19,248 bases of DNA. It comes from a virus. The DNA lies in the UHGV virus genome UHGV-0135199, one strand, 5' to 3'. The notes beneath the pieces are model-generated. The model worked only from the letters and a program-made list of their open reading frames with translations, made no database searches and had not been told where the DNA came from. Position 1 is the stretch's first letter. The number at the start of each line of letters is the position of its first letter. Of this stretch, positions 2,010 through 19,248 are shown in pieces. Position numbers and translations under genes: made by a program.

Positions 2010-2744
2010 TTAATAAGCCAGAGATTTTTCTGGTATATCTTTTGAAGAGTACTGATTTGGGGTCACGCCAAAATATTTTCTGAAAACAGAAATAAAATAA
2101 GACACATTTTCATAACCACAAATTCCTGCGACCTCACAGATTGAATAGCGGTGGGTATTTAACAAATTTTCTGCTACAACCATTCTTTCTTCAAGAATAA
2201 TTTTACTAAATGACACCCCTTCATCTTTTAACTTTTTCTTTAACAGGCTTTCACTCAAATACAATCTTGAGGATATATCTCTTAGTCTCCAGCATGCCGC
2301 AATATCCGTATGGATAATAGCCTTAACCTTTCCCCCAACACCATTCAGACATCCGAATAAAAAAGTCTGAAGCATTTTATCTGATGATAAAACCGCAAGA
2401 CATGCAAATGATATTGTACTCTTGATTAATGTCGTATTTGCGCCACTATGATTCAGGCAAATGATTAACTGGCTAAGCAATGAGAAATCAAAAGCACTGA
2501 CCATTAAGTATGCGGGATACCCTCTTCTGACGGAGTGATGTGCAAGAGTATTTATTTTGAAGTAATCGTTAACAGTTTTCTCATCAAAGTCAGCGATAAT
2601 CACATTATCAGGGCATGCAGAGAAAACATTTCTTAAACTATAATCTACAAGAATAGCATCCCCCCTTTCAAGAAAGTGCTCTCTCTTGCCAAACCGGACA
2701 TCAAATGAGTTCAATACCAGGATGACAGAACATATGACCGGCAT
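2010..2744 (-). CDS. AraC/XylS-family transcriptional regulator (accessory gene between Q and holin)
   Basis: C-terminal HTH signature ([31 protein letters not shown]) typical of AraC family; ATG at 2744 preceded by AGGTGGG; region visibly AT-rich relative to neighbours. Confidence 0.8.
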
Positions 2745-2887
2745 ATTACCCACCTGATATTATGAATATTTAAATTAAGTATACGCAGGAAATCACACTT
2801 TACCAAATATGCAATAACAAAATGCTGCGGGAAAAGCCTCACTACCTGTTATCAAGCGGTAGACATACAAATCCCATCATTGAGAAA

Positions 2888-5431: not shown

Positions 5432-6391
5432 TCAGCTAATTGCAAAGATATTAAAAATAACTTTAGGGAGTGCGAAAGATGAAATAAAAAGCACAACCAT
5501 AAAAATGGCATGCTTAATAAATGATGAGCTTGTAAAAAAAGCTCCTCCCTTGCTAATTCCTGCCATAAAAACAAAGATAAAGCTAATTAAGCACGACCAT
5601 ATCACTAACAAAACTGAGATTGACATGCTTAAAGACATATCGCGAGAAAATACGTTTACTGAAATAGAAATAAAGGTAAAGAAAGAAGCAAATAAAGCAA
5701 TGACACCCAGCATTGAGTTCCTTGCTGTAATTACTTCCGATTCAAAGCTTTTAACTTTCTCATGTATATCTTTTTCAGCATTTGATAATGTTGCATCAAA
5801 TTGCTCAATCTTTGCAGTTTGCTGAGATAATGAAGACATTACCTTACCTATTTTTCTTTTAGTATCATTAATATTCTTTTTGCTCTTATTCAACTCTTGC
5901 GAAAAATTGGTTAGTTGATCATTGATATTTTTCCAGAGGATGTTATCAATATCACTTTTTGTATATTTTTTTACATTCTCTTTATTAAAAGAAATTGTAG
6001 ATTCAGAATTATTATTAACAAAGTAATTAGATAAAATGGCATTAGAGACAGTATTATCCATCACCGGCACAGTTGCTTTTGAACTGTATTTTATAGCTTC
6101 ATGCGACATTTCTTTTTCATTAACAAAAAGAGAGGTTTTTATTAAGTTTTGTGGTGCCGCGTCTTTGATAGATATACTTTCCCGCTCTTTATTTGAAGCT
6201 GTTGCAGTTTTATTATCTATCTGCAAATTACTAATTTTTTGTACCCCTCCTGTATACGTAGATGTACTATTCGATACTTGTGAATTAGAATAAAGTGAAT
6301 GATGCGCAGTTCTTTTTGCCATGTCATCGTTGACTATAGCATTATTTTTTGCAGTTCTTTTTATATCCTTTTTATTATCATCCTTATTCAT
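5432..6391 (-). CDS. Hypothetical membrane protein (319 aa): N-terminal low-complexity Asn/Ser/Thr/Lys-rich region, central probable coiled coil, three C-terminal hydrophobic helices
   Basis: Hydrophobic stretches at about residues 228-248, 257-279 and 293-316 (hand counted); ATG at 6391 lies 14 bp after the upstream gene's stop with GAGGTGG SD in the gap; strongly AT-rich; no family recognised. Confidence 0.7.
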   Translation of the reverse strand: MNKDDNKKDIKRTAKNNAIVNDDMAKRTAHHSLYSNSQVSNSTSTYTGGVQKISNLQIDNKTATASNKERESISIKDAAPQNLIKTSLFVNEKEMSHEAIKYSSKATVPVMDNTVSNAILSNYFVNNNSESTISFNKENVKKYTKSDIDNILWKNINDQLTNFSQELNKSKKNINDTKRKIGKVMSSLSQQTAKIEQFDATLSNAEKDIHEKVKSFESEVITARNSMLGVIALFASFFTFISISVNVFSRDMSLSMSISVLLVIWSCLISFIFVFMAGISKGGAFFTSSSFIKHAIFMVVLFISSFALPKVIFNIFAIS

Positions 6392-6405
6392 TCAGCCACC
6401 TCACA

Positions 6406-7071
6406 TTACTGAATTTCATTCACTTTACTTAAAAAGGCTTTTTTTGTTTTTTCTGCGGTATATTTATCTTTAAATATAAAACTCTCGATTGTATTCACAT
6501 CGATCTGTTTCACTAGCATTGGTTGTTCTCTGACAATATCATATCCTGGCATAATCGACAAATGACAATTAAATATGGACTGCTCAAACTCGAATTTTTT
6601 ATTATACATTAAATTAATATCTTCAATTATTTCGCTATCATTCTGCATGTTGTTACTAAGATAGTTTTTAACAATCTCTTTGTTTGGGTTGTTGTTTAAT
6701 TCCGCCTTAACGGCCACCAAGCCTATTCTGATAATATCCTTATTGAGTTCTTTATGGATACCAACCACACTATCGAAAACTTCTTGAAACAAATGTAAGT
6801 CTACCTCTTGCTCAGAATCCATACGTTCAAAAAACAAATCACATCTCTGCAGTGAGCATTGAACTCTAAATTTATTATCTATAGAAAACAATTGGAGACG
6901 AGGAATCTCTGGTGGGGTATCCATAGGTAAAACGCCCAACATCATATTGTTTGTTAATTCAATACCTGCCTTCTTTTTAAAAGTTTGCCTAATAAAATAC
7001 GACATTCCATCGAAATCGACAGTCGTTGATGAATCGTAAAAAAATACCATTTGTAACTGTATGATTTTCAT
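6406..7071 (-). CDS. Hypothetical soluble protein (221 aa), first gene of the two-gene AT-rich cassette
   Basis: Long ORF in very AT-rich DNA, translationally coupled to the downstream membrane protein; no recognisable motif; start codon choice uncertain (weak SD at 7071). Confidence 0.65.
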   Translation of the reverse strand: MKIIQLQMVFFYDSSTTVDFDGMSYFIRQTFKKKAGIELTNNMMLGVLPMDTPPEIPRLQLFSIDNKFRVQCSLQRCDLFFERMDSEQEVDLHLFQEVFDSVVGIHKELNKDIIRIGLVAVKAELNNNPNKEIVKNYLSNNMQNDSEIIEDINLMYNKKFEFEQSIFNCHLSIMPGYDIVREQPMLVKQIDVNTIESFIFKDKYTAEKTKKAFLSKVNEIQ

Positions 7072-12400: not shown

Positions 12401-12565
12401 ATGCAATATGCCATTGCAGGGTGGCCTGTTGCTGGCTGCCCTTCCGAATCTTTACTTGAACGAATCACCCGTAAATTACGTGACGGATGGAAACGCCTTA
12501 TCGACATACTTAATCAGCCAGGAGTCCCGAAAAATGGATCAAACAATTATGGCTATCCAGACTAA
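12401..12565 (+). CDS. cIII: cIII (inhibitor of FtsH-mediated cII degradation)
   Basis: Hand-translated [54 protein letters not shown]; AAGGAG SD; not on the ORF track (54 aa). Confidence 0.9.
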   Translation: MQYAIAGWPVAGCPSESLLERITRKLRDGWKRLIDILNQPGVPKNGSNNYGYPD

Positions 12566-12677
12566 ATTCACTATCGCCACTTTTATTGGCGATGAAAAGA
12601 TGTTTCGTGAGGCCGTCGACGCTTATAAAAAATGGATATTAATACAGAAACTGAGATCAAGCAAAAGCATTCACTAA
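12534..12677 (+). CDS. kil: Kil (host-killing, FtsZ-inhibiting protein)
   Basis: [47 protein letters not shown] matches lambda Kil; the ORF-track 89-aa extension is rejected; overlaps cIII 3' end as in lambda. Confidence 0.85.
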
Positions 12678-13048
12678 CCCCCTTTCCTGTTTTCCTAATC
12701 AGCCCGGCATTTCGCGGGCGATATTTTCACAGCTATTTCAGGAGTTCAGCCATGAACGCTTATTACATTCAGGATCGTCTTGAGGCTCAGAGCTGGACGC
12801 GTCACTACCAGCAGATCGCCCGTGAAGAGAAAGAGGCAGAACTGGCAGACGACATGGAAAAAGGTCTGCCCCAGCACCTGTTTGAATCACTCTGCATCGA
12901 TCATTTACAACGCCACGGGGCCAGCAAAAAAGCCATTACCCGTGCGTTTGATGACGATGTTGAGTTTCAGGAGCGCATGGCAGAACACATCCGGTACATG
13001 GTTGAAACCATTGCTCACCACCAGGTTGATATTGATTCAGAGGTATAA
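12632..13048 (+). CDS. gam: Gam (RecBCD inhibitor); long form, with the shorter form starting at MNAYYIQD (12752)
   Basis: [55 protein letters not shown]... near-identical to lambda Gam as recalled. Confidence 0.95.
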
Positions 13049-13053
13049 AACGG

Positions 13054-13839
13054 ATGAGTACAGCACTCGCAACGCTGGCTGGGAAGCTGGCTGAACGTGT
13101 CGGCATGGATTCTGTCGACCCACAGGAACTGATCACCACTCTTCGCCAGACGGCATTTAAAGGTGATGCCAGCGATGCGCAGTTCATCGCATTGCTGATC
13201 GTCGCCAACCAGTACGGCCTTAATCCGTGGACGAAAGAAATTTACGCCTTCCCTGATAAGCAGAACGGCATCGTTCCGGTGGTGGGCGTTGATGGCTGGT
13301 CCCGCATCATCAACGAAAACCAGCAGTTTGACGGCATGGACTTTGAACAGGACAACGAATCCTGCACATGCCGGATTTACCGCAAAGACCGCAATCATCC
13401 GATCTGCGTTACCGAGTGGATGGATGAATGCCGCCGCGAACCATTCAAAACCCGCGAAGGCAGAGAAATCACCGGACCGTGGCAGTCGCATCCCAAACGG
13501 ATGTTACGGCATAAAGCCATGATTCAGTGTGCCCGTCTGGCCTTCGGATTTGCTGGTATCTATGACAAGGATGAAGCCGAGCGCATTGTCGAAAATACTG
13601 CATACACTGCAGAACGTCAGCCGGAACGCGACATCACTCCGGTTAACGATGAAACCATGCAGGAGATTAACACTCTGCTGATCGCCCTGGATAAAACATG
13701 GGATGACGACTTATTGCCGCTCTGTTCCCAGATATTTCGCCGCGACATTCGCGCATCGTCAGAACTGACACAGGCCGAAGCAGTGAAAGCTCTTGGATTC
13801 CTGAAACAGAAAGCCACTGAGCAGAAGGTGGCAGCATGA
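13054..13839 (+). CDS. bet: Bet (Red-beta single-strand annealing protein)
   Basis: [59 protein letters not shown]... matches lambda Bet. Confidence 0.95.
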
Positions 13840-14516
13840 CACCGGACATTATCCTGCAGCGTACCGGGATCGACGTGAGAGCTGTCGAACAGGGGGATGA
13901 TGCATGGCACAAATTACGGCTCGGCGTCATCACCGCTTCAGAAGTTCACAACGTGATAGCAAAGCCCCGATCAGGAAAGAAGTGGCCTGACATGAAAATG
14001 TCCTACTTCCACACCCTGCTAGCTGAGGTTTGCACCGGTGTGGCTCCGGAAGTTAACGCTAAAGCGCTGGCCTGGGGAAAACAGTACGAGAACGACGCCA
14101 GAACCCTGTTTGAGTTCACTTCCGGCGTAAATGTTATTGAATCCCCGATCATCTATCGCGACGAAAGTATGCGCACCGCCTGCTCTCCCGATGGTTTATG
14201 CAGTGACGGCAATGGCCTTGAGCTGAAATGCCCGTTTACCTCCCGGGATTTCATGAAATTCCGGCTCGGTGGTTTCGAGGCCATAAAGTCGGCTTACATG
14301 GCCCAGGTGCAGTACAGCATGTGGGTGACGCGAAAAGATGCCTGGTACTTTGCCAACTATGACCCGCGTATGAAGCGTGAAGGCCTGCATTATGTCGTGA
14401 TTGAGCGGAATGAAAAGTATATAGCGAGTTTTGACGAGATGGTGCCGGAGTTCATCGAAAAAATGGACGAGGCACTGGCTGAAATTGGTTTTGTATTTGG
14501 GGAGCAATGGCGATGA
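13836..14516 (+). CDS. exo: Exo (Red-alpha 5'-3' exonuclease)
   Basis: [65 protein letters not shown]... matches lambda exonuclease. Confidence 0.95.
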
Positions 14517-14695
14517 AACATCCTCACGATAATATCCGCGTAGGCACGATCACTTTCGTCTACTCCGTTACGAAGCGAGGCTGGGTATTTCCCGGCCTTT
14601 CTGTTATCAGAAATCCACTGAAAGCACAGCGGCTGGCTGAGGAGATAAATAATAAACGGGGGGCTGTATGCACAAAGCATCTCCTGTTGAGTTAA
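14507..14695 (+). CDS. Lambda orf61-like hypothetical protein
   Basis: [62 protein letters not shown]; start overlaps the exo stop. Confidence 0.7.
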
Positions 14696-14859
14696 GAACG
14701 AGTATCGAGATGGCACATAGCCTCGCTCAAATTGGAGTCAGGTTTGTGCCAATACCAGCAGAAACAGACGAAGAATTTCATACGTTAGCCACATCCCTTT
14801 CACAAAAGCTGGAAATGATGGTGGCGAAAGCAGAAGCAGATGAGAGAGACCAGGTATGA
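14668..14859 (+). CDS. Lambda orf63-like hypothetical protein
   Basis: [63 protein letters not shown]; overlaps neighbours on both sides. Confidence 0.7.
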   Translation: MHKASPVELRTSIEMAHSLAQIGVRFVPIPAETDEEFHTLATSLSQKLEMMVAKAEADERDQV

Positions 14860-14936
14860 CAACCACTGAATGCATTTTTCTGGCAGCGGGCTTCATATTC
14901 TGTGTGCTTATGCTTGCCGACATGGGGCTTGTTTAA
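14856..14936 (+). CDS. Possible 26-aa hydrophobic peptide coupled between orf63 and orf60a
   Basis: Hand-translated MTTTECIFLAAGFIFCVLMLADMGLV; ATG overlaps orf63 stop (ATGA), stop overlaps orf60a start (TAATG). Confidence 0.35.
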   Translation: MTTTECIFLAAGFIFCVLMLADMGLV

Positions 14937-15151
14937 TGACACCTCAGCAAGAAAACGCCCTTCGCAGCATTGCCCGTCAGGCTAATTCTGAAATCAAAAA
15001 AGCCAGACAGCAGTTTCCGGATAAAAACGTCGATGACATTTGCCGTAGCGTACTGAAGAAGCACCGCGAAACGGTAACGCTGATGGGATTCACACCGACT
15101 CATTTAAGCCTGGCGATCGGCATGTTAAACGGCGTTTTTAAGGAACGGTGA
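14936..15151 (+). CDS. Lambda orf60a-like hypothetical protein
   Basis: From ATG at 14936: MTPQQENALRSIARQANSEIKKARQQFPDKNVDDICRSVLKKHRETVTLMGFTPTHLSLAIGMLNGVFKER; an in-frame ATG at 14870 would give a longer product. Confidence 0.7.
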   Translation: MTPQQENALRSIARQANSEIKKARQQFPDKNVDDICRSVLKKHRETVTLMGFTPTHLSLAIGMLNGVFKER

Positions 15152-15173
15152 ACATGAAAAGCAAAATTATCAG

Positions 15174-15197
15174 GGAGCTACAGGCTCCTTTTTTATT
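15174..15197 (+). terminator. Intrinsic terminator downstream of orf60a
   Basis: ggagc-tacag-gctcc hairpin followed by TTTTTTATTATT. Confidence 0.5.
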
Positions 15198-15249
15198 ATT
15201 CGCATTTACCCTCAAGCGTATTAACCAACAATTCAGGGATTAATGAAAG

Positions 15250-15471
15250 ATGGCAGACATCATTGATTCAGCATCAGAAATCGAAGAATTACAGCGCAAT
15301 ACAGCAATAAAAATGCGTCGTCTGAACCACCAGGCTATATCTGCCACTCATTGTTGTGAGTGTGGCGATCCCATAGATGAACGAAGACGCCTGGTCGTTC
15401 AGGGTTGTCGGACTTGTGCAAGTTGCCAGGAAGATCTGGAGCTTATCAGTAAACAGAGAGGTTCGAAGTGA
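15250..15471 (+). CDS. TraR/DksA-family C4 zinc-finger protein (lambda orf73-like)
   Basis: MADIIDSASEIEELQRNTAIKMRRLNHQAISATHCCECGDPIDERRRLVVQGCRTCASCQEDLE...; CxxC-x17-CxxC zinc finger typical of TraR. Confidence 0.8.
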   Translation: MADIIDSASEIEELQRNTAIKMRRLNHQAISATHCCECGDPIDERRRLVVQGCRTCASCQEDLELISKQRGSK

Positions 15472-15719
15472 GCGTAATTCACTCTCAGGCACTGCGTGAA
15501 GCGGCAGAGCAGGCAATGCATGACAACTGGGGATTTGACGCGGACCTTTTCCATGAGCTGGTAACACCATCGATTGTGCTGACACTGCTGGATGAACGGG
15601 AAAGAAACCAGCAATACATCAAACGCCGCGACCAGGAGAACGAGGATATTGCGCTAACGGTGGGGAAACTGCGTGTTGAGCTGGAGACAGCAAAAATCAA
15701 AACTCAACGAGCAGCGTGA
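15468..15719 (+). CDS. Ea22-like protein, 83 codons ending at an in-frame TGA (possibly truncated)
   Basis: GTG start overlapping the orf73 stop; MSVIHSQALREAAEQAMHDNWGFDADLFHELVTPSIVLTLLDERERNQQYIKRRDQENEDIALTVGKLRVELETAKIKTQRAA; recalled as resembling the lambda Ea22 N-terminus. Confidence 0.55.
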   Translation: MSVIHSQALREAAEQAMHDNWGFDADLFHELVTPSIVLTLLDERERNQQYIKRRDQENEDIALTVGKLRVELETAKIKTQRAA

Positions 15720-15881
15720 GTAGAAGGTGTTATCTCGGATGGAAGTAAGCGTATTGCTGAACTGGAGGCCTGGGTTGAATACACAAGAGCTGCATACGTA
15801 AGAGCAAAAGACAAGGGAGATTTGATCAGAGTTATTACCAGCCAACCAACGGGATTTTACGCTTACGTACCATGTAATTAG
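15720..15881 (+). pseudogene. In-frame continuation of the Ea22-like reading frame after the TGA stop (53 codons, no start codon)
   Basis: Same frame as 15468..15719; translates VEGVISDGSKRIAELEAWVEYTRAAYVRAKDKGDLIRVITSQPTGFYAYVPCN; no in-frame ATG or GTG. Confidence 0.35.
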
Positions 15882-16017
15882 GAATCCTTGAAGTGGCAGC
15901 CTAACTGCGGATACACTGAAATGGCGATTTGGTAACATGTTTCGCACAAGGGTGTTACTACGCTTAGAGATAATCAGCCATGATTAAACGCTTTGTAAAA
16001 AGTAAAAGGAAATTACA

Positions 16018-16632
16018 ATGAAAAAATCAATACTAATTTTAGGGCTTACGTTAATTGTCTCATCTCAAATACCATCGGCAATGGCAAAAAATGAATCAAA
16101 ACTATGGGTTGTTGTTGATCGAACGGAAAGACATACCTGCCCTTCAAGTAAATGTGGAGTGGCTGGAAAACTATTTTTCAGGGAAGGCGTAGATTTTCTA
16201 GAAAAAAAAGGTGAATGGGTTCGTATAACTGAGCCATATTCAGCCTCATGTGTTGGAGGGGAAAGCGAATATATTAAAGAAGGTAATAAATCCTGCACAA
16301 GAAAAAATGGAATCGTTAATGGCAAGTTTTCAGAATGGGTTAAACTTAGTGATCTTAGCAGTGAAAGGCCATCAGATCCTGCTGAAAATGCGAGCGGAGA
16401 TGATACTTTAATCAAAGGATCTGATGACTACCGTATATACAAAAAAGAGTTTTCTTCGGCAGCTAGGAAGTTAATAAATGAAGGGGTCTGCACGGAAAGC
16501 GATTTTAAGGAAATCGGAGGGTGGATGGCATCAAGCAATAAGGGTGAAAACATCTATTTCACATATTGCGGAGGAATGACGTTGTCGAACAGAATATACC
16601 TAGATGTTAAAAGTGGAAAGACTTTTAGATAA
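16018..16632 (+). CDS. Hypothetical secreted protein (204 aa) with N-terminal signal peptide
   Basis: MKKSILILGLTLIVSSQIPSAMA followed by KNE (probable signal peptidase I site); eight Cys in the mature part; AAAAGGA SD; AT-rich; no family recognised. Confidence 0.7.
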   Translation: MKKSILILGLTLIVSSQIPSAMAKNESKLWVVVDRTERHTCPSSKCGVAGKLFFREGVDFLEKKGEWVRITEPYSASCVGGESEYIKEGNKSCTRKNGIVNGKFSEWVKLSDLSSERPSDPAENASGDDTLIKGSDDYRIYKKEFSSAARKLINEGVCTESDFKEIGGWMASSNKGENIYFTYCGGMTLSNRIYLDVKSGKTFR

Positions 16633-16704
16633 TATGATATTACCAATGACAGTATTGATTTAATGCCTCCATAGAATTATCTCTAGGAAGTAGGTATAAG
16701 AAAA

Positions 16705-16740
16705 GCCCGCACAATGAGCTGCTGCGGGCTTTGTGTTATT
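16705..16740 (+). terminator. Intrinsic terminator after the secreted-protein gene
   Basis: 7-bp stem gcccgca/tgcgggc with 11-nt loop followed by TTTGTGTTATT. Confidence 0.55.
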
Positions 16741-16782
16741 CGCCATATTTTATGAAGCAAATACGACACTATAGATAATTAA

Positions 16783-16928
16783 GCGTTGCTGGTTGTCGAT
16801 TCCTCAATCACTCCTGTGGATGGCTCTCTTCTTGTATGTGCCATTGAAGGGGAATATCGCGTAAAAAGATACCGGAAGTATCCGCGCCGCCATTATTGTC
16901 TTTCTCCTGATGCAGGAAAAGCAGAATG
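16783..16928 (+). pseudogene. C-terminal fragment of an S24 (LexA/UmuD-like) peptidase; no N-terminal domain or start codon
   Basis: Translates ALLVVDSSITPVDGSLLVCAIEGEYRVKRYRKYPRRHYCLSPDAGKAE; resembles the UmuD/LexA segment around the catalytic Lys (...[29 protein letters not shown]...) from recollection. Confidence 0.4.
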
Positions 16929-17259
16929 ATCCTACCCACGTAATATGGACACAGGCCTAAGCGAGGTTCTGGTTTTCAAATTGTTCCGGACTGAGGCCGC
17001 CACACCAACTGTGCCACGCGTCGCTTCAGGCGTGCGCCTTGCGAGTTTGGTGAGTACATCGCGTTACTGAGCCGCCAGGATGATGCACGTGTGCGCTGGC
17101 GTATAAAATCGATCAGCAGAAAACGTTGCGGTAAGTGCGGCGAGAGAGTTCCTGTTAATTCATGCCCGTGTAATGGTGACTCACAATGCTGGGTGACCAA
17201 AGGCTGGCACGAAACAAAATTAATGATATAAATCTCTGTGACATGTCACGGAGGCGGCA

Positions 17260-17688
17260 ATGAAATTAGACCAGCAATATCTAAAAGATCTACTTATCGC
17301 ATTCGAAAAAACTCGTGGCCCTGACACGATGCTTAGTGAACTAGAGGATAATGGCTTTAATAGATATGACCAAGATTTTATTTTCCATATGCGATTATTA
17401 TGTGACTACGAATTAATAGTCAGGGTTGATGGAAAACCTGGATTCGGTCATATAATGTCCAAAGCGTTAGGGGAAGGTGTTGGATATAGTTGGATCGAAG
17501 TACCACTGAGGTTGACAGCAAGAGGGCATGATTTTATTGCTGACTTACGTCAAAAGGATGTCTGGCAAGCTATAAAAACAAACTTTAAGGATGAGGGAAT
17601 TAGTACACTTATGAGTGTTTCAAAATCACTAGCAAAAGGCTTTGCAAGGAAAAAGATAAAAGATATTACAGGAATAGATATTGAATAA
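17260..17688 (+). CDS. Hypothetical protein (142 aa), AT-rich accessory gene upstream of orf55/xis
   Basis: ATG at 17260 preceded by GGAGG; MKLDQQYLKDLLIAFEKTRGPDTMLSELEDNGFNRYDQDFIFHMRLL...; no family confidently recognised. Confidence 0.7.
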   Translation: MKLDQQYLKDLLIAFEKTRGPDTMLSELEDNGFNRYDQDFIFHMRLLCDYELIVRVDGKPGFGHIMSKALGEGVGYSWIEVPLRLTARGHDFIADLRQKDVWQAIKTNFKDEGISTLMSVSKSLAKGFARKKIKDITGIDIE

Positions 17689-17771
17689 TTCTTAGCATCA
17701 AGCAACTACTGCCTTTGGTGGAAATTATATCTGAACTCGCTACGGCGAGTTTTGTTTTATGGAGATGATAA

Positions 17772-17939
17772 ATGCACTTCCGAGTCACAGGTGAATGGAA
17801 TGGAGAGCCATTCAACAGGGTTATCGAAGCAGAGAACATCAACGACTGCTATAACCACTGGATGATATGGGCGCAGATAGCGCATGCAGACGTAACCAAT
17901 ATTCGAATTGAAGAACTGAAAGAACACCAAGCCGCCTGA
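17772..17939 (+). CDS. Lambda orf55-like small protein
   Basis: Hand-translated MHFRVTGEWNGEPFNRVIEAENINDCYNHWMIWAQIAHADVTNIRIEELKEHQAA; GGAG SD; immediately upstream of xis. Confidence 0.65.
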   Translation: MHFRVTGEWNGEPFNRVIEAENINDCYNHWMIWAQIAHADVTNIRIEELKEHQAA

Positions 17940-17952
17940 TGGCGGTTTTTTC
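17932..17952 (+). terminator. Possible intrinsic terminator overlapping the orf55 stop
   Basis: ccgcc-tgat-ggcgg hairpin followed by TTTTTTC. Confidence 0.4.
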
Positions 17953-17978
17953 TTGCGTGTAATTGCGGAGACTTTGCG

Positions 17979-18197
17979 ATGTACTTGACACTTCAGGAGT
18001 GGAACGCACGCCAGCGACGCCCAAGAAGCCTTGAAACAGTTCGTCGATGGGTTCGCGAATGCAGGATATTCCCACCTCCGGTTAAGGATGGAAGAGAGTA
18101 TCTGTTCCACGAATCAGCGGTAAAGGTTGACTTAAATCGACCAGTAACAGGTAGCCTTTTGAAGAGGATCAGAAATGGGAAGAAGGCGAAGTCATGA
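17979..18197 (+). CDS. xis: Excisionase
   Basis: MYLTLQEWNARQRRPRSLETVRRWVRECRIFPPPVKDGREYLFHESAVKVDLNRPVTGSLLKRIRNGKKAKS is essentially lambda Xis. Confidence 0.95.
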   Translation: MYLTLQEWNARQRRPRSLETVRRWVRECRIFPPPVKDGREYLFHESAVKVDLNRPVTGSLLKRIRNGKKAKS

Positions 18198-19248
18198 GCG
18201 CCGGGATTTACCCCCTAACCTTTATATAAGAAACAATGGATATTACTGCTACAGGGACCCAAGGACGGGTAAAGAGTTTGGATTAGGCCGAGACAGGAGG
18301 ATAGCAATCACTGAAGCAATACAGGCCAATATTGAGTTACTCTCAGACAGCGGACGCAAATCACTGATAGACAGAATTAAAGGCGGTGACGCAATCACTC
18401 TTCATGTGTGGCTTGACCGATATGAAAGAATCCTCACCGAAAGGGGGATCAGGCCGAAAACTCTACTCGACTACGCCAGCAAAATCAGGGCAATCCGAAG
18501 AAAATTGCCGGACAAACCGCTCACTGACATATCAACGAAAGAAGTGGCAGCAATGCTAAACACCTACGTAGCAGAAGGTAAAGCAGCTTCCGCAAAATTA
18601 ATCAGGTCAACCCTTGTTGACGTTTTTCGTGAAGCAATAGCCGAGGGGCATGTGGCAACGAATCCGGTAACAGCAACCCGTACAGCAAAGTCAGAAGTAA
18701 GGCGCTCAAGGCTGACAGCTAATGAGTATGTCGAGATTTACCATGCAGCCGAACCTCTCCCTATCTGGCTAAGGCTGGCGATGGATTTGGCCGTCGTTAC
18801 AGGGCAGAGAGTCGGCGATTTGTGCAGAATGAAATGGTCAGACATAAACGACAACCATCTTCACATTGAACAGAGTAAAACAGGGGCTAAACTCGCCATT
18901 CCGCTAACGCTAACGATTGACGCGCTCAATATCTCATTGGCTGATACACTACAGAAATGCAGGGAGGCCAGCAGCAGTGAAACTATAATCGCATCAAAGC
19001 ATCACGATCCTCTTTCCCCGAAAACAGTATCAAAGTATTTTACAAAGGCGAGAAATGCATCTGGACTCTCATTTGATGGAAACCCGCCAACATTCCATGA
19101 ACTGCGTAGCCTGTCAGCGAGGCTATACCGGAACCAGATTGGCGATAAATTTGCTCAACGTCTTCTCGGGCATAAATCAGATTCAATGGCGGCGCGGTAT
19201 AGGGACAGCCGTGGACGGGAATGGGACAAAATTGAAATCGACAAATGA
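18175..19248 (+). CDS. int: Tyrosine integrase (lambda Int family)
   Basis: MGRRRSHERRDLPPNLYIRNNGYYCYRDPRTGKEFGLGRDRRIAITEAIQANIEL... through ...HELRSLSARLY...GHKSDSMAARYRDSRGREWDKIEIDK, including conserved catalytic-domain segments; overlaps xis by 23 bp as in lambda. Confidence 0.95.
   Translation: MGRRRSHERRDLPPNLYIRNNGYYCYRDPRTGKEFGLGRDRRIAITEAIQANIELLSDSGRKSLIDRIKGGDAITLHVWLDRYERILTERGIRPKTLLDYASKIRAIRRKLPDKPLTDISTKEVAAMLNTYVAEGKAASAKLIRSTLVDVFREAIAEGHVATNPVTATRTAKSEVRRSRLTANEYVEIYHAAEPLPIWLRLAMDLAVVTGQRVGDLCRMKWSDINDNHLHIEQSKTGAKLAIPLTLTIDALNISLADTLQKCREASSSETIIASKHHDPLSPKTVSKYFTKARNASGLSFDGNPPTFHELRSLSARLYRNQIGDKFAQRLLGHKSDSMAARYRDSRGREWDKIEIDK

Follow-up and report, generated by a model that had tools for sequence, protein, structure and literature searches.

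The window, i.e., the whole stretch of 19,248 nt that was analysed (UHGV virus genome UHGV-0135199), is a lambda-like Escherichia coli prophage. Over the stretch that was compared, it shares 99.8% identity with a prophage of strain LH10-b-1, which is integrated between torT and torS, and its right 7.9 kb is about 94% identical to the isolated Escherichia phage Chlobot. In a blastn comparison with lambda, the window is collinear at 12501-15766 (96.8% identity) and at 17724-19248 (79%), with no match between the two blocks. The left block runs from cIII to approximately codon 100 of ea22, while the right block starts just upstream of xis. The interval between them (15767-17723, plus strand) is a low-GC mosaic segment of 1957 bp that replaces the 3' end of lambda ea22 and all of ea8.5, and contains the gene studied here, a remnant of a UmuD-like (S24) gene and a DUF2513 gene. 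The target gene (16018-16632, plus strand) starts with ATG and encodes a protein of 204 amino acids followed by a stop codon; it is also carried by Chlobot. Among 5426 complete E. coli genomes, 132 contain the gene, with the same module present in the three copies inspected, whereas the surrounding 1.8 kb is matched in part in about 4900. The first-pass annotation of the locus as an AT-rich accessory gene in the int-proximal region thus agrees with its patchy occurrence inside a replacement near xis-int.

The target gene shares its genomic slot and strand with lambda ea22 and ea8.5, but its product is unrelated in sequence to the cytoplasmic Ea22 and Ea8.5 proteins and, unlike these, is predicted to be exported. 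Both lambda proteins take part in the decision of phage development (PMC7093339, PMC8614690). In the window, ea22 (15468-15766, plus strand) is cut at about codon 100 by the mosaic junction, and the RefSeq copies are annotated as a frameshifted or partial ead/Ea22-like pseudogene. As a result of this truncation and replacement, the prophage lacks the pro-lysogenic C-terminal domain of Ea22 as well as ea8.5.

The encoded protein corresponds to RefSeq entry WP_000748282.1, labelled 'hypothetical protein', and is a full-length member of PHROG 8310 (family HMM E-value 1.8e-136, with all 204 residues aligned to the 204 positions of the profile), a family to which PHROG assigns no named function. 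A word-indexed search returned 83 close homologs, including a 90% identical protein in E. fergusonii and proteins in Pseudomonas and Aeromonas with 60-69% identity, and in an exhaustive profile search the cluster representatives numbered 1478 (E≤1e-3), 594 (E≤1e-10) and 173 (E≤1e-30). The alleles within E. coli are almost without variation (97-100% identical), with a dN/dS of 0.12 (Nei-Gojobori), and comparison with the E. fergusonii copy by the same method yields 0.08-0.10 at a dS of 0.73. The number of homologs and cluster representatives together with these ratios places the ORF beyond chance: the gene is genuine and under strong purifying selection (dN/dS about 0.1), which rules out a spurious or neutral ORF. 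All database entries for the family read 'hypothetical protein' and none of the homologs is characterised, so there is no housekeeping periplasmic relative of known unrelated function that would contradict the first-pass annotation. In addition, a literature search for WP_000748282/WP_000748281, PHROG 8310 or phage Chlobot found no published mention. These anonymous labels and the lack of a known phenotype are what could be cited for a miscalled ORF or a selfish passenger without a role. This is scarcely credible in view of the purifying selection over such synonymous divergence, the identity retained between E. coli and Pseudomonas, the high-confidence predicted fold, the covarying disulfide pairs described below and the hundreds of cluster representatives.

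The gene is preceded by its own ribosome-binding site, AAGGA, located 7 nt 5' of the ATG (16006-16010, plus strand) and, as read from the sequence, kept in the P1/P7-like E. fergusonii phage that carries the 90% identical copy (locus L092) and in a further locus (L091). Upstream lies a conserved leader of 142 nt (15876-16017, plus strand) that travels with the gene, as the homology to L092 begins exactly 142 nt before the ATG and ends at the stop codon (15876-16634). The leader contains a promoter-like pair, TTGAAG (15888-15893) and TACACT (15912-15917), separated by 18 nt and matching 8 of 12 consensus positions, which is below the threshold of the scan. Both hexamers are invariant between the window and L092 while their spacer varies, and the leader is 80% identical despite the high dS of the coding sequence, in which synonymous sites are about half saturated. 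The pair may therefore act as a promoter, although this is inferred from sequence only: the scan detected no sigma-70 consensus promoter upstream of the gene on the plus strand, and the promoter candidates in the Pseudomonas, Aeromonas and P1-like loci are mutually inconsistent. No Rfam element matches in 15000-17900, and the predicted fold of the leader RNA is not significant (z -1.5).

Downstream of the gene, an A-tract, a GC-rich hairpin and a U-tract (AAAA-GCCCGCA...UGCGGGC-UUUGUGUU, 16701-16737) form a hairpin resembling a bidirectional intrinsic terminator. The predicted folding energy of the 61 nt that include it is -22 kcal/mol (z -3.3), and none of 200 shuffled sequences is as stable. 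A simple terminator scan flagged only the minus-strand version, since the plus-strand loop exceeds the limit of the scan. An equivalent hairpin is found 3' of the gene in L092 (4933-4949). The gene has a GC content of 0.379 (GC3 0.29), compared to 0.52-0.53 for bet/exo and 0.449 for the whole window, and the same tendency is seen across the family, with 62 of 75 loci having a gene of lower GC content than its surroundings (median -0.043, p 9e-10). The ribosome-binding site, the downstream terminator and the lower GC content relative to the neighbouring recombination genes (38% vs 52%), all of which had been noted from the first reading of the sequence, are thus borne out. With its presence or absence between conserved flanks, its deviant composition and its own terminator, the target gene is an uncharacterised, ordinary-looking moron.

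The family is mobile and associated with phages and other mobile elements. The copy in L092 adjoins hot- and humD-like genes, and as leader and ORF are shared with this phage and a similar terminator follows, the unit moves as leader, ORF and terminator. In five loci in Pseudomonas, a family member is found directly 3' of a tyrosine integrase in small islands. An Aeromonas prophage carries a copy between an antiterminator gene and a holin gene, and one further copy is located in an IS-rich region. Furthermore, 51 viral contigs of IMG/VR encode a family member, and genes for spanin, holin, endolysin and terminase are among those surrounding the 14 diverged copies that were inspected. In Agrobacterium and Rhizobium, proteins consisting of the C-terminal domain alone (see below) are encoded among consecutive small ORFs that resemble prophage DNA. 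A distant branch in Vibrio appears to be chromosomal and native, showing synteny with c-di-GMP enzymes and a SecDF paralog and no GC offset; this synteny is uninformative as a functional clue, but such native-looking branches suggest that the core role of the family may be unrelated to phages. When the neighbours were clustered (81 loci) and scanned against Pfam, no partner gene was found to be conserved beyond the genus level, and none was shared throughout 77 genome loci.

Several recurrent neighbours were observed in the course of these comparisons. The Pseudomonas islands (L002 8806-12411; L006 3267-6065) share KilA-N-type regulators, a DUF6971-like protein of ~130 amino acids and a protein of ~337 amino acids without known function, which raises the possibility that they are a small integrative element or satellite of an undescribed kind. 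The DUF2513 gene lies 3' of the family member in the window (17260-17688, plus strand), and in Marinobacter litoralis a DUF2513 gene directly follows a gene for a stand-alone C-terminal domain lipoprotein (L066 8347-8709; blastp 28% identity, E 2e-4; Pfam DUF2513 match); with two cases, this adjacency could be coincidence or a loose linkage. A UmuD/S24 gene is found next to the family member in three settings, i.e., as a degraded remnant in the window (16786-16929, plus strand), as an intact 'UmuD-like protein' in Chlobot (L011 17009-17326) and as a humD-like gene upstream in L092 (3681-4073), an arrangement that hints at a P1-like phage as the source of the lambda-type cassette.

The exo-xis region, in which the gene lies on the pL strand, is expressed early once the phage infects or is induced, and its transcription is believed to start at pL (PMC4195576, PMC8614690). 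Early lytic transcription from pL (PMC4195576) suits a role in the lytic cycle as well as protection of the lysogen. The protein might accordingly be a lytic-cycle helper that is made early from pL, or beside the lysis cassette, and acts on the wall of the producing cell through endolysin access, lysis timing or remodelling. The diverged relatives among lysis and terminase genes in viral contigs and in the Aeromonas prophage, the wall-binding type of its SH3b domain (see below) and the lack of a consensus promoter of its own are in line with such a function. Position, however, is not specific evidence here, since the gap between lysis and terminase genes is a classic moron site, as exemplified by lambda bor. 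Moreover, the cassette retains its own conserved leader and terminator in each new location, as morons with independent expression typically do, the Pseudomonas islands with the gene next to an integrase show no lysis genes in the stretches examined, and apparently non-phage chromosomal contexts carry the family as well, rendering the lytic-cycle role rather unlikely.

The N-terminus of the protein, MKK-SILILGLTLIVSS-QIPSAMA followed by KNE, has the n/h/c layout of a Sec signal peptide with a positively charged n-region, a hydrophobic h-region and A-x-A at positions -3/-1 for signal peptidase I (SPase I). The predicted signal peptide comprises residues 1-23 (MKKSILILGLTLIVSSQIPSAMA; 16018-16086, plus strand), with cleavage before K24. 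In the AlphaFold model of the protein (40-sequence alignment, pLDDT 89.9, pTM 0.72), residues 1-24 are the sole low-confidence stretch (pLDDT 45-67), and the mature part is predicted to fold without them. In relatives, the equivalent place is occupied by a signal peptide, a lipobox or a transmembrane anchor; some of the transmembrane anchors are combined with a zinc ribbon on the cytoplasmic side, and in one relative ankyrin repeats are present in the periplasmic part. A Sec-type signal peptide, as proposed at first sight, is therefore well supported at the level of the sequence. The same reading had counted eight cysteines in the mature part, but there are six: C41, C46, C78, C93, C158 and C184. 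Across 303 aligned relatives, these residues are retained or lost as pairs. Both C41 and C46 are present in 197 and absent in 64 sequences, with no sequence having only one of them; for C78/C93 these numbers are 207, 67 and 3, and for C158/C184 they are 274, 0 and 3, respectively. This covariation is strong indirect evidence that the six cysteines form three disulfides, which in turn points to an oxidising, extracytoplasmic compartment.

Having an SPase I site but no lipobox, outer-membrane β-barrel or anchor, the E. coli protein should stay in the periplasm. This bears on whether it serves as a host-interaction or virulence factor, for instance as an adhesin or in serum resistance or immune modulation, comparable to lambda Bor or Lom. 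Such a role could be imagined for an exported prophage moron that is carried by E. coli isolated from humans, poultry, pigs and the environment, but is very improbable, as a periplasmic location fits it poorly, free-living bacteria of the sea and soil, as well as their phages, commonly encode relatives, and the gene occurs in scattered genomes only, with no enrichment in pathotypes. The cassette does resemble the known envelope morons, i.e., the lambda-type morons bor and lom and the cor/llp lipoproteins of phi80, N15 and T5, in being compositionally distinct, having its own terminator, lying between conserved phage genes at several hot spots and encoding a probable envelope product. However, it shares no homology with any of them, and its product is predicted to be a soluble periplasmic protein in E. 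coli rather than an outer-membrane protein or lipoprotein.

The mature protein is modelled as two domains connected by a structured linker. Residues 27-110 (16096-16347, plus strand) form an SH3-like β-barrel in the model that can be superposed on solved bacterial SH3 (SH3b) domains, and a search of a viral structure library with this half returned SH3b proteins only. The sequence of the window protein itself scores 16.2 bits against Pfam PF08239 (SH3_3; E 0.012), which is under the gathering cut-off of 27 bits, but 38 of 40 relatives match this family at E≤5 (best 5.9e-8), and some of them have a precomputed PF08239 match. The predicted fold is thus shared with the wall-binding domains of lysostaphin, of the endolysins Psm, PlyPSA and LysPBC5 and of NlpC/P60 endopeptidases. 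In contrast to these systems, the protein has no recognisable catalytic domain, would function in a Gram-negative periplasm and contains an additional insert bridged by C78-C93 as well as the C41-C46 disulfide. SH3b domains are targeting modules for peptidoglycan or other wall polymers, and by analogy this half probably docks the protein on peptidoglycan. The linker (residues 111-128; 16348-16401, plus strand) is modelled with high confidence (pLDDT 93-96) and contains a conserved R117-P118-x-D-P motif, of which P118 is invariant and R117 almost so among relatives.

The C-terminal domain (residues 129-204, 75 residues; 16402-16629, plus strand) has a predicted α-α-β-β-β topology with the C158-C184 disulfide and, when modelled alone, consists of two long helices and three strands (pLDDT 93). 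Its motifs S135-D-D, G167-G-W, S172, Y180-F-T-Y-C-G-G and N191-[RK]-x-Y-L are 77-100% conserved in 277 sequences, and the near-invariant polar and aromatic residues (S135, D136, D137, W169, S172, Y180, Y183 and N191) are grouped in loops. Sequence searches of Pfam, NCBIfam, PADLOC and the PDB gave no match to this domain. Two apparent matches were discarded: a 'Bubble protein' hit (5 members, E 0.022) was taken as Cys-rich noise, and the de novo designed TIM barrels found in a PDB profile search (E 1e-6) reflect summed matches to one helix motif (SDDWR...) repeated four times, not homology. The first-pass annotation, which recognised no family, therefore holds for the C-terminal domain, but not for the protein as a whole, given its PHROG membership and its SH3b half. 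The C-terminal domain also exists alone in exported proteins or lipoproteins of ~100 amino acids, as a tandem pair, or behind other N-terminal modules. This versatility identifies it as the autonomous core of the family, with SH3b being an add-on. The novelty here is modest and consists in a widespread, undescribed periplasmic domain that is joined to SH3b. For annotation purposes, 'hypothetical protein' can usefully be replaced by SH3b-domain periplasmic protein in the exo-xis slot. Some relatives (P0094, P0118, P0126 and P0133) have an extra exported N-terminal domain of ~170 residues with a conserved P-K-[DE]-x-C...LGYP motif joined to SH3b and the C-terminal domain; this extra domain, a further undescribed periplasmic module, has no match in Pfam or the PDB.

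As catalytic domains are the commonest partners of SH3b domains, and the top structural neighbours of the SH3b half are nearly all wall-binding modules joined to such domains, the C-terminal domain could itself be catalytic, very small and of an undescribed type, acting on peptidoglycan by modification or cleavage and targeted by SH3b as in endolysins and NlpC/P60 hydrolases. The near-invariant polar and aromatic loop residues would also be compatible with an active site, yet we consider an enzyme improbable. The weak fold neighbours of the domain are α+β rolls of the binding or inhibitor type, namely an extracellular subdomain of MapZ, cystatins, BLIP-like proteins and PepSY; as the matches to the cystatin, BLIP-like and PepSY folds are all below significance, any likeness of the modelled domain to these inhibitors is tentative. 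Together with its tiny size and its occurrence alone, in tandem or variously anchored, this resemblance favours a binder or inhibitor. The protein has no match to the family models or folds of the lysozyme inhibitors Ivy, PliC/MliC and PliG, and Pfam returned no match to these or to the cystatin, BLIP-like and PepSY inhibitor families.

Taken together, the reading that we favour, with a probability of roughly 55%, is that the product is an exported, wall-associated, non-enzymatic accessory protein. In this model, a self-contained moron cassette of leader, ribosome-binding site, ORF and terminator has entered the exo-xis region of a prophage of the lambda type. The encoded protein would be exported by Sec, lose its signal peptide of 23 residues and acquire its three disulfides in the periplasm, resulting in a mature protein of about 20 kDa that behaves as one rigid unit. 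The SH3b domain would dock this unit on peptidoglycan, and the C-terminal domain would bind, and probably block or shield, a conserved envelope target, possibly the glycan or peptide, or else an enzyme that acts on the wall. The absence of a conserved partner gene combined with very high conservation across phyla argues that this target is a universal component of the envelope and not one particular protein of phages. The likely benefit would be an altered susceptibility of the sacculus to attack, for example by the wall-degrading enzymes of incoming virions.

A role in superinfection exclusion or host interaction, to which the first-pass annotation pointed for exported prophage proteins at such positions, is at present a guess. 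The analogy used for the proposed mechanism is T4 Spackle (Sp), which acts in the periplasm and excludes superinfecting phages by inhibiting the gp5 tail lysozyme. Like Spackle, the protein would be small, Sec-exported, phage-encoded and periplasmic, and may act alone at the peptidoglycan layer. However, Spackle is all-helical and has no SH3b domain, and there is no sequence or fold relationship between the two (no PDB match). Searches of PADLOC (0 families at E≤10), PHROG and the PDB (by sequence) revealed no homology to described exclusion or defence proteins, and nothing relevant on SH3 proteins in superinfection exclusion was found in the literature. Many receptor-masking exclusion proteins are caught in arms races; the near-invariant alleles and the low dN/dS of the target gene differ from this pattern and argue against exclusion. 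Protection of the lysogen by the protein, for example at the wall-penetration step in the manner of Spackle, is plausible and the most appealing concrete form of the model, but on its own rather unlikely. A broader proposal is that the C-terminal domain defines a widespread family of periplasmic effectors of phages and mobile elements, attached to the wall through SH3b, or in other members by lipid or a transmembrane segment, that block the wall-degrading enzymes of incoming phages, the T6SS or lysozyme, i.e., a Spackle-like defence across Proteobacteria; we regard this as unlikely and speculative. Exported prophage morons are one of the main means for temperate phages to alter the host envelope, for instance in exclusion, serum resistance and adhesion, and most of them are unannotated. 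If the C-terminal domain were a peptidoglycan-level inhibitor or shield, it would constitute a new periplasmic defence or immunity domain, with members in several hundred protein clusters. Since its two domains are modelled with confidence and an isolated phage, Chlobot, carries the gene, the protein offers a handle for genetics.

Two other low-GC regions were observed in the window. A two-gene block at 5432-7071 (minus strand, GC 0.29-0.33), encoding ORFs of 319 and 221 amino acids, adjoins the replication protein P gene and is covered for at least 80% in only 21 of the 5426 E. coli genomes. Its genes are annotated as hypothetical and have no meaningful PDB sequence match, and the block looks like another moron or a candidate defence cassette in the nin/ren slot. 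Finally, an ORF of 247 amino acids with a GC content of about 0.35 is located at 2010-2753 (minus strand) in the late, lysis-proximal part.
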